Source: Eledone cirrhosa
Taxonomy: Eukaryota
Direction: 5' to 3'
Length of the DNA stretch: 64,000 bases
Assembly (NCBI GenBank): GCA_964016885.1
Contig: OZ024747.1
Location: 80,910,001-80,974,000, forward strand
Part shown: one piece after another, positions 819-49,955 of the stretch
Numbering within the stretch: position 1 is the stretch's first letter
Layout: each line of letters begins with the position of its first letter
Position numbers and translations under genes: made by a program
Notes under the pieces: model-generated
The model's input: only the letters and a program-made list of their open reading frames with translations
Told to the model about the DNA's origin: nothing
Database searches by the model: none

Positions 819-1139
819 TAGTTATGTAATAAATAACATAAGACAGTTATTCCATTTACCAAAGGTTTCACGAAGACAGATGAGCTCGTCTGTCTTCGTG
901 AAACCTTTGGTAAATGGAATAATTGTCTTATGTTGTTTATTACATAACTAAATAGCTCTGTAGCCTACATAGAGCACTCAGTCCATGGGACGAGTTTGAT
1001 AGAAGTAGTTCCACAACAGTTAGTTCATCATACCGAGAACAAATGTTTCACCTTATGTGGATCATCAGCTCGGTCTCAGACCGCATAAGGGTGAAATATT
1101 TTGTCTCGGTATGGTGAACTAACTGTTGTGGAACTACTT
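819..1139 (-). mobile_element. Penelope-like pLTR-type element in (TA)n: double fold-back with hammerhead
   Basis: Near-perfect palindrome 819-950, second inverted repeat 1003-1139, hammerhead at 1033-1073, (TA)n on both sides. Confidence 0.7.
1033..1073 (-). ncRNA. Minimal type I hammerhead ribozyme
   Basis: Minus strand: ccgag CUGAUGA uccacauaaggu GAAAC auuu GUU cucgg; 5-bp stem I and complete core. Confidence 0.75.
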
Positions 1140-1249
1140 ATATATATATATATATATATATATATATATATATATATATATATATATGAATCACTACCTC
1201 CTTACGGACAACTGACGCTGCACACCAGGTCCGAATACAGAAGAGCCGA

Positions 1250-1365
1250 ACTCCTTCTGTCATCGCCTCCATCTCTCTCGCTCTCCCCACCTCTCTGTAT
1301 TACGAGCAAATGGGAACCCACGTGATGGCCACCCCACAGCCCCGGCCGACAGAATGGAGAAGGTG
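1250..1365 (+). repeat. Unclassified interspersed repeat, homologous to 9200-9315 (-)
   Basis: Shared blocks tctctc.cgctctc.cca, gagcaaatggg..cc, tggcc.cccc, acagaat.gagaagg. Confidence 0.5.
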
Positions 1366-1593
1366 TTTCCCCGGAGGATGGCAAGGGAGATGCGCTGGAA
1401 GAGCCATTCAATCTCGCGAGGCTCACACCTGCGGCTAGCGAGCTTAGCTCAGCGCCTATGGTGGTAAGAAGGGAGGTAGCCCAAGAGTCAAGGGAATTTT
1501 GATACCGGCTCTGATGAATTTGTTACATAATGTATCAGTGTTTTGTGTCTACTACTACAAAAACAAAACAGCAACGCACCATTATCACCACTT

Positions 1594-1788
1594 CAGACCT
1601 GTCAACGCTCCCTGTCCGACGGGTAGATCTCCCACCCACTTTGGGGTGGGTGAGAGATGTCTTCTCTTGTGAAAATGGGTATAGCTTTCATTATGTAAAA
1701 TCTCCCCATTTGGCCTCATTTCTTTCCGTTTTGGGGCACTCTTTTTCAAGGTACTCCCTGTTTAGGCTTTTGGAGGTTGACAGGTCTG
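1594..1788. mobile_element. MITE with 13-bp TIRs and 6-bp TSD
   Basis: TIRs cagacctgtcaac / gttgacaggtctg, flanked by direct repeat CCACTT at 1588-1593 and 1789-1794. Confidence 0.8.
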
Positions 1789-2013
1789 CCACTTCATTCA
1801 GGATATAAGGCCGGGAAGTTACCTAAATAGTAACAAACTTAGGATAATTATAATTCCAAATTAAACAAGGATGACCAAGGCGATGTTAAAATTCAATACT
1901 GAATAACATCAATTCGAACTCAGTACACTGTTGTATCTTCTATAGAAAATATTTGAAAGCGAAACTGTTCCTTATACACTCACACGCATGTATACATATA
2001 TGCACATATATTA

Positions 2014-2466
2014 TACACACACACACACACACACACACACACACACACACACACACACACACACACACACACACACACACACACACACACACACACACAC
2101 ACACACACACACACATATATATATATATATATATATATATATATTTATATATATATATATATATATATATAAAATATATATATATATATATATATATATA
2201 TATATATATACACACATATATGTATATATATATATATATATACATATATACATATGCATATAAATATATATATATATACACATATATATAAATATAAATG
2301 TATATATATATATATATATATATATATATACATATATATAAATATATATATATACACATATATATAAATATAAATGTATATATATATATATATATATATA
2401 TATATACATATATATAAATATATATATATATGTATATATATATATATATATATATATATATATATA
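2014..2466. repeat. Compound (CA)n-(TA)n microsatellite, one of many in the window
   Basis: Read directly; source of the HTHT/YIYI ORFs. Confidence 0.98.
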
Positions 2467-45767: not shown

Positions 45768-47460
45768 CATACATATATACATACATATAAATATATATAC
45801 CTACGCTTTTATTATGAAGAAATTTCATGCATAAATGTGCAGGTGATTGGTAGGTACAAGCAGATTGGTTGTGGGGTTTAAATACGATATAAGAGTTTCC
45901 TTGTTTTGCAGCAGAAATATTTAATTAGAGTAAAAAAGAAATGATCTAGAATTTTTTGATTAGATTTACCTGAAAATAGCTTAGCGTCCACTTAATGATA
46001 AGATAAATGTATCCCTGATTGTCTTAATATTCTAGAAATTGAAGCAAAAAACTGCATGCTACAATTCCCCTTATTTGGGACAGGATTAAGTCAGCTTAAT
46101 GTAATCTACAATTTCATATACTGATTAATGAATTATACAATATATATATATATATATATATATATATATATATATATATATATATATATATATATATATA
46201 TATATATATATATATATATATATATATATATATATATATATATATGTATATATATATATATATATATATATATATGTATATATATATATATATATATATA
46301 TATATATGTATATATATATATATGTATATATATATATATATATATGTATATATATATATATATATACATATATATATATACATATATATATATATATATA
46401 TATATATATACATATATATGTGTGTGTGTGTATGTGTGTGTGTGAATGTGTATGTGTAAATAGTTTGTGTTCGCGTGCTTATACATACATACATAAACCG
46501 CATAACATAGCCCACTCTATCACTATTTCATATCGATCTGTTTAATGAAATCCTCAGATGTTGTTAGCGTTTGCAATAGGAAGCCACGTTGAGGCATGTA
46601 ATCCTATTGTCCAATCGCTTCATCCTAATTTATATCATCTGTTTTATGAATTACTTTATCGATATCAAAACTATATAACACATAACATCAAACCACACAT
46701 GTTGGCTTTACTTTATCGTCTGTTTTAATGAAATTCTCAGATGTGCTCAGCATTTAGGATTACAAACCACGTGCTGGAACATAATATAGTCAGCCATTGC
46801 GTCTCACACAAAGACGGCACATAAGCTTCATAGAAATAAACTAGCACATAAGCTTGGCGTAAATATAAATGAAGTCCTCATCCGGGTAATGGAAGAACTC
46901 TAATTACTACCGAAATGTTGATGTCACACAAGACCATTTCTCTCCCAAACGCTATAAATATTGATCAAACTAAAGACAAAGACGACAATAATTTGATTAT
47001 CTTTCTTCAATGTATTAAGCAATGAACATAATTAGTTTTCTGATTGCCATATCTGTCTCTGCATATGAGTTCATATAATTTAGTATATACTGCGTATCTA
47101 TATATATGTATTTGGATACACAGCAGACAGATATGCATGCACATATATAGGAGTATACATTTATAATCAAATATACATCCGTGTAATGACTGTGTGCATT
47201 TACATGACATATATTTCTTTATATGTATGTGTATATGTATATTACCATGCAGAATTACACGAAAACGCATATATATATATATAAATATATATACATATAT
47301 ATATATACATATACAAACACACACACATATATATATATATATATATGTATATATATATATATATATATATATATATATGTGTGTGTGTGTGTGTGTGTGT
47401 GTGTGTGTGTGTGTGTGTGTGTGTGTGTGTGTGTGTGTGTGTGTGTATATGTATATATAT

Positions 47461-47724
47461 ATATATATGAATGTATATACAGTGTATTTTGCAATACACT
47501 GTATGCTTAATTAGAAGCATGTTGAAGACCTTACGCTATTGTTTTAGAGCAGTGACAATGTCACTTCTTTTTTTTTGTTGAAAAAAGAAGTAAGTGACAT
47601 TGTCACTTCTTTAAAACAATAGCGTAAGGTCTTCAACATGCTTCTAATTAAGCATACAGTGTATTGCAAAATACACTAAATATACATTCATATATATATC
47701 GGTATTTCAGAGCACCGATTCTAA
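47461..47724 (+). mobile_element. Fold-back element in (TA)n, ~115-bp arms, no recognisable hammerhead
   Basis: 47461-47575 is the reverse complement of 47580-47699; short hairpin tail atcggt..accgat. Confidence 0.75.
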
Positions 47725-47967
47725 TATATATATATATATATATGTGTGTGTGTGTATATATATATGTATATATGTATATATATATATATATATATATATA
47801 TATATATATATATATATATATATATATATATATATATATATATGTCTGTGTGTGTGTGTGTGTGTGTGTGTGCGTGTGTGTGTGTGTGTGTGTGTGTGTG
47901 TGTGTGTGTGTGTGTGTGTGTGTGTGTGTGTATATATATATATATATATATATATATATATATATAT

Positions 47968-48814
47968 ATAAATTGAGATGAGCAGAACAAACAAACATTA
48001 AGCAATCCCTTAAATAAATTAAAAATTGATCTAAATATCTACCTGTTCATAATGCTATTACCGGCGGTTTCGCTTTACAAAAGATTAGAAATTCAGAGAA
48101 TTTCTAACGGAAAAGTAAAGTTCATCAGATAGCTATTTCCACTCTATAGGACTAAGTCCCACAGCCTGCAAATATAATGCCAACTACCAGCTAGTATGAC
48201 CGTTATGGCCGTTAAAGTGACCCACACGTGAACTGGCCGCTAGTGAAAGCGGGAATATTACAGACGTGTTGATGGCTTTGCTGCTAAAGAAATAGCAGTA
48301 AGCAACAACACATTTTTTTCTCTACATAGATTGGAGAATATATAAAATCAGGTAAATATCTCCCTGAGTACTAAGTACCCATAGATATATATAGGGTGTC
48401 TATAATATAATTGTTGTTCCATGGTACTAATTTGAGATACCAGAACTATAAAAATTGAGATGAGCAGAACAAACAAACATTAAACAAATATAGTTGGCAT
48501 TATATTTGCAGATTGTGGGACTTAGTCCTATAGAGTGGAAATAGCTATCTGATGAACTTTACTTTTCCGTTAGAAATTCTCTGAATTTCCAATCTTTTGT
48601 AGATGGAAACCGCCGGTAATAGCATTATGAACAGGTAGATATTTAAATCATTTTTAATTTATTTAAGGGATTGTTTAATGTTTGTTTGTTCTGCTCATCT
48701 CAATTTTTATAGTTCTGGTATCTCAAATTAGTACCATGGAACAACAATTACATTATAGACACCCTATATATCTCTATGGGTACTTAGTACTCAGGGAGAT
48801 ATTTACCTCATTTT
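47968..48814 (+). mobile_element. Complex fold-back hammerhead element (hammerheads 48544-48623 plus, 48054-48133 minus)
   Basis: gcuau CUGAUGA [long stem II] GAAA ccgccgg UA auagc; two separate inverted segments of the 48491-48814 unit lie upstream. Confidence 0.8.
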
Positions 48815-49239
48815 ATATATATATATATATATATATATATATATATATATATATATATATATATATATATATATATATAAATTATATAATATGTATATAT
48901 ATATATATATATACTAGCATAGTATCCACGAAGAAGGATGGGCTTATAGTACATAATATGTAAATTAACATTATTTGGTTACACAATTTTAACCCTCAAT
49001 TTTCCTTGATATTTCCTTGAGAGTATCTCTCGTGACAGAAAATATATCTGTTAGTACACAAATTTAAACATCTCTTTCTTTGGTTTTAAGGATGGCGAAA
49101 CGAAATCTAAAAAGGATGACGACGAAGGTGAGAATATTTTATGACAATACATATCATCATTATCACCTCCAATGTCTATCTTTGCCTGCATGCTTTATAT
49201 ATATATATATATATATATATATATATATATATATATATA

Positions 49240-49955
49240 CAAATAAAATAGAGTTACTAACTCATATTGATACCCTGCAATTAACAAGCTCAAAGTATAA
49301 ATACTGAGCATCATATAATAATATATGTAGAAATAAACACAGAGAATTCTGTTTCTAAAATTACGAGTGTAGAGAATATCACATTTGTTTTATATATTTA
49401 AACTTAATCATACGTAAGATATGAAAAAAATGTTCATAAGTTATAAACATTTTTTCATATACAGACCGTATCAATAACTATTTCATCTCTCGGACAGATT
49501 AGAGATTTAATCTGTTTCGCCCTGAAAATTATGTTTGTAACAGATAATCCGTAGGCTTTCGTCAACGAGAGAAAAGATCAAATGAAACAAAACACATGTA
49601 ACTACAATTAACAAGAAAGAACAACAGACCTCGTTTGTTGGGCGTTATACGTGGTGTGAGTGGAAATGCTAGAAATAATAGCCTTATTACACTCAACTAA
49701 TAAGCTCACCTAGTTAGGGAGCCGAAATATAAATAAAATACAGAGTTACTAATTCATATTGATACCCTGCAATTAACAAGCTCAAAGTATAAATACTGAG
49801 CATTATATAAAAAAAAATGTTTATATCTTATGAAAAAATTGTTTATATCTTACGTATGATTCAGATTAAATATATAAAACAAATGTGGTATTCTCTACCC
49901 TCGTAATTTTAGACAGAGAATTCTCTGTGTTTATTTCTACATATATTATTATTAT
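49240..49955 (-). mobile_element. Rearranged (TA)n element: direct plus inverted duplications around a spacer carrying a hammerhead (49487-49571, minus)
   Basis: 49241-49318 repeats at 49731-49810; 49318-49455 is inverted at 49812-49950; cucucg UUGACGA..GAAA cagauua..uaaucug UC cgagag. Confidence 0.75.

Follow-up and report, generated by a model that had tools for sequence, protein, structure and literature searches.

Hammerhead elements in the TA tracts of the window

We analyzed a stretch of 64,000 nucleotides (nt) from the genome of Eledone cirrhosa (assembly GCA_964016885.1, contig OZ024747.1, positions 80,910,001 to 80,974,000), which is called the window in the following and is numbered from its first letter. 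The window is AT-rich animal DNA, dense in microsatellites, with long copies of long interspersed nuclear elements (LINEs) as well as copies of short interspersed nuclear elements (SINEs). Short inserts interrupt its (TA)n tracts, and an earlier note, made from the letters alone, had seen in them type I hammerhead ribozymes and a radiation of retroelements. The presence of Penelope-type, TA-targeting, hammerhead-bearing retroelements in many families was borne out, and the clade is Hydra. Judged by their sequence, the inserts are the hammerhead-bearing ends of many Hydra-clade families of Penelope-like elements (PLEs). It is likely that these ends were made by two short reverse transcripts, which flank an RNA hairpin and were joined head to head.

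For identification of hammerheads, we applied a strict descriptor (type I, intact core), which leaves position 10.1/11.1 free. It gave 8 matches in the window compared to a mean of 0.025 (maximum 1) across 40 block-wise dinucleotide shuffles. With a relaxed descriptor, 13 motifs were found in 11 elements, against 0.16 (maximum 1) per shuffle in 25 shuffles. Both counts lie above the shuffle expectation, one of the comparisons on which the earlier note had staked its proposal. Demanding a pair at 10.1/11.1 cuts the 8 strict matches to 2. A mismatch is usual at this position in the window (U·U, C·A, A·C, A·A), and U·U is present in 5 of 10 window entries, in 14 of the 30 hammerhead-bearing related loci described below and in 14 of 26 Hydra rows in the available part of the published data (PMC8557442). 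Rfam returned no hammerhead family among 133 window matches up to E 1; its matches are low-score microRNA matches to hairpins and microsatellites. A Hydra hammerhead model, built from 13 hammerheads outside the window, found the pair 11062/10950 as the best window match (E 3-4e-6) and 4 further known sites at E<0.05, plus one stray match at 601-631.

Seven of the eight sites which had been listed as intact pass the descriptor (1033-, 10950-, 11062+, 28078-, 34200-, 34419+ and 48054-). The eighth, 48544+, fails: both core words are kept, the base of stem II is broken, and the Hydra hammerhead model gives E 0.78. From the seven sites listed as variants, 4308+, 11309+, 38829+ and 49487- pass the relaxed scan, while 7198-, 7264+ and 11626- do not. 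The core of the pair 7198-/7264+ is decayed (8 nt), and 7264 also lacks GAAA; stems I and II still fold. The site 11626- has support neither from the descriptor nor from the hammerhead model or folding. A type II reading of 6753-7065 was weighed by eye and dropped. Two motifs were missing from the earlier list, one with intact core at 33779-33860 (-) and one variant at 41419-41471 (-). In addition, 3'-half hammerheads cut by inversion were seen by eye near 880-910 (+), 39485-39525 (+) and 6670-6716 (-). As a side observation, the first core strand has 8 nt instead of 7 in both 7198-7249 (-) and 7264-7315 (+), and CAGANGA is found in three other motifs (near 878, 4312 and 41465); natural variation of the core or decay could account for this.

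Association with (TA)n, another claim of the earlier note, is clear within the window: 12 of the 13 hammerheads have (TA)6 or longer within 250 nt on their 3' side, in comparison to 17.6% of window positions. For the comparison of fold-backs and families, 25 TA-bounded intervals were picked by hand. A self-inverted match is present in 17 of them, and 13 are clear fold-backs with arms which are 79-98% identical, so that most are inverted repeats as described. The 25 intervals fall into about 20 sequence groups, in agreement with the more than ten dissimilar families proposed; a hammerhead or the tail hairpin is present in about 12 of these groups. The proposed size range of 150-850 bp does not cover the element at 28040-29737, which is 1.7 kb long.

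In the fold-backs, both arms face outward. One arm halts at an inner point (end 1), whereas the other runs on for 24-107 nt to an outer point (end 2). The 13 clear fold-backs appear as inverted 5'-truncated copies with a tail on one end. Since the inserts are short, inverted and without coding sequence and are flanked by TA on either side, the fold-backs might instead be assembly chimeras or miniature inverted-repeat DNA transposons which target TA. We regard this as hardly credible. Matching terminal inverted repeats with symmetric ends were not found in the intervals, since the two arms end at different points, and the arms, only 79-98% alike, carry hammerheads and a Hydra-type hairpin. Furthermore, a public contig, which may come from the source sample, crosses the junction at 38755 without mismatch. 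The unequal arm ends and the matches to the hairpin model described below largely refute this explanation.

The Hydra-type endonuclease and a conserved tail hairpin

At 38270-38554 (-), the window contains a remnant of the C-terminus of a GIY-YIG endonuclease of the Hydra type (CxxC..E, CxH; with a single in-frame stop), which lies head to head with a hammerhead arm of the family called family A here. A full HMMER search with the frame 38749-38405 (-) yielded 48 proteins at E<=1e-3. Their alignment shows a GIY-YIG endonuclease with a CxCX5C linker and CxxC..E..N..CxH and without CCHH. Lack of CCHH together with this linker and CxxC/CxH is the signature of the Hydra clade, as given in the available text of Craig et al. 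2021 (PMC8557442). A profile made from the homologous proteins alone matched 38554-38102 (-) at E 1.7e-25. These endonuclease features (CxxC and CxH around E and N, no CCHH) were found in one insert only, at 38554-38270 (-). A word-indexed protein search and an atlas search did not detect the remnant, and the Pfam GIY-YIG model gave sub-threshold matches in 3 of 15 of its homologues. A second endonuclease-like snippet at 13568-13771 (+) was not significant (match 13607-13657, E 1.6) and was not counted. Two pieces, 37811-37971 (+) and 38737-38576 (-), are 78% identical and have a common starting point, the second running into the remnant; our guess is a Hydra copy with an internal deletion. 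Upstream of the remnant, a stretch at 38691 (-) resembles the hairpin but has no model support, and its homologue at 37850 reaches only E 4.2.

Beyond the window, we collected 79 partly redundant loci which encode relatives of this endonuclease; no relative was found in viral contigs. The CxCX5C linker, RWK and DKT parts are absent from the window. Among 20 long frames of the related loci, many of them partial, the linker is present in 14, RWK/RWR in 5 and DKT in 7. Where at least 250 nt of downstream sequence was available (55 loci), 26 loci carry a hammerhead behind the endonuclease, 25 of them at a distance of 28-537 nt and a doubtful one at 2257 nt.

Between the two copy ends, behind the hammerhead, lies a bulged hairpin of the form RCUC-stem-UU-GAGYRC. 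It starts 2-7 nt after end 1 in several unrelated window families, and its outer pair is usually A-U in the window and G-C in the related loci. Of the 30 related loci with a hammerhead, 15 contain the hairpin at a distance of up to 160 nt, 9 end in TA before reaching it and 6 show neither. From 59 matches to the anchor pattern, 25 non-window copies were retained after removal of near-duplicates and of tRNA-like, antisense and other doubtful matches. Their inner stem is paired in 97% of cells with 27 two-sided changes; 0 of 500 shuffles scored as high and slid controls lay far below, though the anchors were selected and kinship may inflate the value. The stem contains G·U pairs and a one-sided bulge, and its sequence is free while pairing is kept. 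A model built from the non-window copies alone gave 22 window matches up to E 5. The 16 matches below E 1 all lie in tails of TA-bounded elements, 8 of them in the array at 29121-29704.

In full elements the hairpin occurs twice, 61-70 nt apart (6 loci), and the start codon lies 34-51 nt after the beginning of the second hairpin. Four of these six loci contain open reading frames (ORFs) of 704-711 amino acids (aa). The hairpin is also visible by eye in the published consensus sequences of coral and sea-cucumber families (Hydra-2_Amil, Hydra-1_Ajap and Hydra-2_Ajap). The words 'hairpin' and 'stem-loop' are absent from the text and supplement of Craig et al. 2021 (PMC8557442), and no prior published description of the hairpin was found in the literature searched, with Repbase, most subscription journals and figures outside the search. 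A search of metagenome contigs with a 26-nt tail pattern gave 0 matches. In some Hydra families, the hairpin motif recurs as an inverted copy between hammerhead and end 1 (locus L001 at ~1095-1111, L003 at ~3147-3163, L048 at ~1441-1457 and L060 at ~620-636).

How such ends could arise is suggested by the one PLE that has been reconstituted so far (PMC11167929). According to the available part of that work, both strands are nicked and extended by the purified protein, copying begins at two sites within the element's RNA, and the PLE tail corresponds to the stretch between these sites; the hammerhead cleaved only with the protein present. By analogy, the hairpin likely positions the start of reverse transcription. 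A Hydra protein, bound to the RNA hairpin, would nick both strands of the self-complementary TA tract, and the hairpin would be the signal by which the protein places the template. At end 1, a few TA bases may pair with the nicked target. One copy would be primed at end 1 and the other at end 2, two fixed points on either side of the hairpin; both reverse transcripts would abort early and then be joined head to head.

Alternatively, the hairpin might act in DNA, either as a recognition site of the endonuclease or as a structure of single-stranded cDNA. The fixed part ends in a near-palindromic word, two families are fused at this word (972-979), and some loci have an inverted motif copy just upstream; in addition, the Drosophila Penelope endonuclease reportedly needs the tail on plasmid DNA (cited in the available part of PMC11167929). 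An inner stem which varies in sequence yet keeps its pairing, including G·U pairs and a bulge on one side, would not be required for recognition of double-stranded DNA, and a role in DNA seems improbable to us.

Several observations weigh against ends primed around an RNA hairpin or against the assignment to Hydra. The hammerhead elements at 4308, 11062, 33779 and 48054 lack the conserved hairpin, and about 8 of the 20 sequence groups carry neither hammerhead nor hairpin. Both the hairpin set and the arm pairs were selected manually. The element-TA target overlap at end 1, which speaks in favor of such ends, has a mean of 3.75 nt (12 window pairs) compared to 1.1 by chance, but the pairs were likewise hand-picked, two anchors were misplaced and two pairs come from one family; moreover, copying by the Anolis PLE starts without target homology in the available text (PMC11167929), unlike the TA overlap proposed here. 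In no single window copy do endonuclease, hammerhead and hairpin stand in line, and the window scan found no hammerhead behind the endonuclease remnant on its own strand. The redundancy within the 79 related loci also counts here, as does the age of the fold-backs, none of which is clearly recent with arms that differ by 2-21%. Of the link between the families and ORFs for reverse transcriptase plus GIY-YIG endonuclease, which the earlier note had proposed to look for, the window shows the endonuclease remnant next to one arm; no reverse transcriptase remnant was found in its 64 kb. The hammerhead of the published Octopus family Hydra-1_Obim had 0 window matches at 3 mismatches. Therefore, the window elements belong to other families. 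Finally, isolated family A hammerheads are predicted to misfold as monomers, with a stem I probability <0.1 for 34200/34419. The three stem III palindromes named in the earlier note are real and are predicted to self-pair as duplexes, while some hammerheads have a long, monomer-type stem III (49486). Since palindromic stems III would pair as duplexes and several monomers would misfold, self-cleavage is predicted to be weak and dependent on a dimer or protein.

Individual elements and units without an open reading frame

At 819-1138, two fold-backs of different families are fused tail to tail. One part (819-948) has a 3' half hammerhead and a hairpin at 955-977 (+), matched by the hairpin model at 949-983 (E 0.0003); the other (1004-1138) has a hammerhead at 1032-1074 (-) and a hairpin at 995-974 (-). 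Within 955-995, the opposite-strand tails of the two families join where the hairpin motif ends in its near-palindromic word, as if an insertion or a template switch had occurred there. The single-arm element 4136-4414 (+) contains a variant hammerhead at 4308-4365 (U4 changed to A, U·U closure, palindromic stem III). The decayed hammerheads 7198-7249 (-) and 7264-7315 (+) belong to an old fold-back with 79% identity (7109-7330), whose tail hairpin lies at 7168-7147 (-; hairpin model E 0.81). The fold-back 10835-11256 (95.5%) has intact minimal hammerheads at 10950-10988 (-) and 11062-11100 (+); its tail of 36 nt is AC-rich and without the conserved hairpin. It is followed by a short fold-back at 11281-11447 (+) with a variant hammerhead at 11309-11357 and a hairpin at 11380-11400, and a second copy of this family lies at 30345-30485. 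The intact hammerhead at 33779-33860 is part of an element at 33708-34046 (-). A 3'-half hammerhead with palindromic stem III and a hairpin at 39546-39571 (+; E 8e-6) were found in the fold-back 39417-39617 (92%), which has a related copy at 6655-6716, and the variant hammerhead 41419-41471 (-) belongs to the fold-back 41404-41625 (95%). No hammerhead or hairpin was found in the TA-bounded fold-back 38995-39398, which has a tail on one arm. The same family is present at 17928-18224, and 6753-7065, 7345-7637 and 47470-47723 are similar cases.

Family A is represented by three elements. In the element 28040-29737, the left arm has a hammerhead at 28078-28143 (-), with about 900 nt upstream of it that contain no ORF. 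In its right arm (29121-29704), the unit of the tail hairpin is amplified 8 times in place as a 73-bp array, possibly a satellite in the making. The fold-back 34071-34523 (97.8%) has hammerheads at 34200-34264 (-) and 34419-34483 (+); its right arm halts at end 1, and its left arm continues via the hairpin 34152-34131 (-) to end 2. The third element is the arm 38758-38932 (+) with the hammerhead 38829-38889, which faces the endonuclease remnant.

Sequencing reads from 4 runs were mapped on 37806-38932. Summed contig depth, which is not a copy number, was 0.5-2.9 million on the family A hammerhead arm, 14-116 on the endonuclease remnant and 12-20 on unique flanking sequence. Family A is highly repeated, and at 38839 the intact core is present in about 96% of raw reads. 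The core change in 38829-38889 is thus private to this copy. A frequent read variant carries a two-sided change which keeps stem II paired. More than 13,000 reads per run pass end 1 into the family A tail, although restriction site-associated DNA (RAD) reads may over-count a few loci. Opposite-strand joints in reads indicate fold-backs at other loci. Within 150 bp upstream of the family A end, read depth drops about 100-fold. For 33710-34520, no RNA data set was listed as containing the sequence, a result without bearing on expression.

Three inserts are partial tandems without an ORF, each seen once. The first (44988-45760, +) has a period of 533 nt and a hairpin at 45145 (E 0.14). A second hairpin-like motif follows directly after end 2, so that the same two-hairpin pattern is seen as in full elements; no hammerhead was recognized in this unit. 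The second, a fold-back plus partial tandem with a period of 482 nt (47971-48813), contains an intact hammerhead at 48054-48133 (-), a damaged one at 48544-48623 (+) and a tail of 107 nt. The third, also a fold-back plus partial tandem, has a period of 490 nt (49240-49940) and a hammerhead at 49486-49572 (-). Its order is hairpin 1, end 2, hairpin 2 (49699-49728, -), about 150 nt, hammerhead and end 1, which corresponds to the layout of a full element minus the 2.1-kb ORF. Here hairpin 2 reaches only E 2.9 in a window-wide search, at the expected position. The longest frames starting with ATG are 52 aa in the 533-nt unit, 26 aa in the 482-nt unit and 32 aa in the 490-nt unit.

Because an ORF is absent from these three units, some families are probably non-autonomous. 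The units would be internally deleted elements copied in trans. That non-autonomous families exist appears moderately probable to us; every case was seen as a single copy, which template jumps could also produce. For the non-autonomous character of the whole set, as stated in the earlier note, only the three units speak in favor. The short length of the other inserts does not allow a distinction from autonomous copies truncated at the 5' end, and one arm abuts the endonuclease remnant. For most inserts, such truncation is an equally good explanation.

This leads to the opposite reading, in which all inserts are debris of autonomous Hydra elements, either 5'-truncated and inverted copies or one-off template jumps, and no non-autonomous family exists. 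The steep fall of depth at the family A end fits heavy 5' truncation, each ORF-less unit occurs once, and the 482-nt junction lies exactly at end 2, where a jump would land. In addition, single and opposite-strand minimal hammerheads have earlier been read as truncated PLEs (PMC4209133, available text). It is difficult to reconcile with debris that the 490-nt unit has its second hairpin after end 2 at the spacing of full elements and no ORF before the hammerhead, evidence which is weak alone at E 2.9, and that the 533-nt unit repeats the pattern. Family A also has about 900 ORF-free nt upstream of its hammerhead in comparison to at most 537 nt in 25 autonomous loci. We therefore consider debris alone a serious but rather doubtful explanation.

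It is less likely still that most families are true non-long-terminal-repeat (non-LTR) retrozymes, whose tandem transcripts would be self-cleaved, circularised and reinserted by Hydra proteins. The three partial tandems share with retrozymes the lack of coding capacity in the unit, and their periods of 482-533 nt are within the circle range of 150 to over 1000 nt (PMC7229834, available part). The abundance of family A far exceeds that of relatives of the local endonuclease remnant, and retrozymes have been proposed as PLE derivatives in the accessible part of a preprint (bioRxiv 10.64898/2026.07.22.740005). The same source uses two consecutive hammerhead units as working definition of a non-LTR retrozyme. 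Among the window inserts, no run of at least two consecutive same-strand units with complete hammerheads was found; the partial tandems have one hammerhead per orientation, and the inserts do not fit this definition. Moreover, most inserts are inverted rather than tandem, the 533-nt unit has no recognizable hammerhead and several cores are decayed.

Several other types of microsatellite-targeting elements (Dong/R4-like, L1/Tx1-like and SINE) coexist in the window. By eye from their translation, Dong/R4-like LINE copies with (TAA)n ends lie at 20288-23940, 60012-63675, 43171-44253 and 54600-58161, and L1/Tx1-like pieces at 18654-19712, 23972-25990 and 51605-53373. SINE copies that end in (AAT)n are numerous (e.g., 58190-58568). 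A second SINE family is probably represented by two copies, 87% alike, of a repeat (12542-12772 and 34900-35132) whose head resembles a tRNA (Rfam tRNA E 0.43 at 12550-12607). In Octopus vulgaris, the same mix of Dong-R4, L1-Tx1 and SINE repeats was described, and the available part of its curated annotation lists 31 PLE families as recently active (PMC13282606). An unbroken frame of 699 codons (35716-37815, +), surrounded by repeats, has no Pfam family and no homologue in our searches, with protein-atlas leads only at score 0.81. A Pfam search of 29 selected window frames returned nothing meaningful.

Significance and comparison with known systems

The question addressed here is how the proteins of PLEs, the closest retroelement relatives of telomerase, choose an RNA and the site at which copying starts. 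That inverted, TA-targeted PLE ends carry hammerheads is already known; what is added here is the conserved hairpin between the two ends, plus the ORF-less units. A covarying hairpin which lies between the copy ends across phyla is a precise and mutable candidate for the signal that marks RNA and start site. Short units without an ORF that keep hammerhead and hairpins would be natural minimal substrates and would link PLEs with retrozymes in a concrete way; if they are copied in trans, they would define the minimal cis-elements for PLE mobilisation. As a broader and tentative proposal, whose parts may well not all hold together, the hairpin conserved from coral to mollusc could be a docking signal which sets the start of reverse transcription, with TA bases pairing like a telomerase template and a radiation of ORF-less units of about 490 nt copied in trans. 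The hairpin model can also flag Hydra-derived inserts which repeat pipelines may call unknown or miniature inverted-repeat transposable elements.

The window is most similar to the Hydra clade of PLEs with a C-terminal endonuclease. In the available text, almost all families of this clade are inserted into (TA)n, and canonical hammerheads and inverted 5'-truncated copies are described for the clade (PMC8557442). The window elements share the (TA)n targeting, the 3' type I hammerhead, often with U·U at 10.1/11.1, the inverted 5'-truncated copies with a tail on one end, and the CxxC and CxH of the endonuclease without CCHH. The same source places Hydra-1_Obim from Octopus bimaculoides in this clade, and the ending of the window endonuclease looks similar to it by eye. 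In contrast, the window contains at least twelve additional families within its 64 kb, none of which matches the Hydra-1_Obim hammerhead, its tails measure 24-107 nt instead of the published 30-40, and it contains ORF-less units.

Minimal PLE hammerheads show weak, dimer-dependent cleavage, and pairs of them on opposite strands, spaced by 100-700 bp, were interpreted as truncated PLEs (Cervera and de la Pena 2014, PMC4209133, available text). They have in common with the window a short palindromic stem III for which a dimer is predicted to be necessary, a large number of divergent families per genome and opposite-strand pairs at the same distance. Their consensus has a bulge and G10.1-C11.1, where the window is usually mismatched, and some window motifs differ by their long, monomer-type stem III.

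PAc, a Poseidon-clade PLE from Anolis (Frangieh et al. 2024, PMC11167929), is alike in its two internal start sites which define the tail, in nicking of both strands of AT-rich DNA, shown for PAc and proposed here, and in a stem-loop at the start region. In the available text, the stem-loop of PAc is AC-rich and inside the ORF, and priming occurs without homology. The window hairpin, in contrast, is sequence-anchored, bulged, upstream of the ORF and conserved across phyla, and end 1 overlaps the TA target.

Animal non-LTR retrozymes, as described in the accessible parts of two sources (PMC7229834; bioRxiv 10.64898/2026.07.22.740005), are likewise ORF-less, low in GC and related to PLEs, with a type I hammerhead. 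The window elements differ from them in having no head-to-tail run of hammerheads, in their mostly inverted insertions and in units of about 490 nt.

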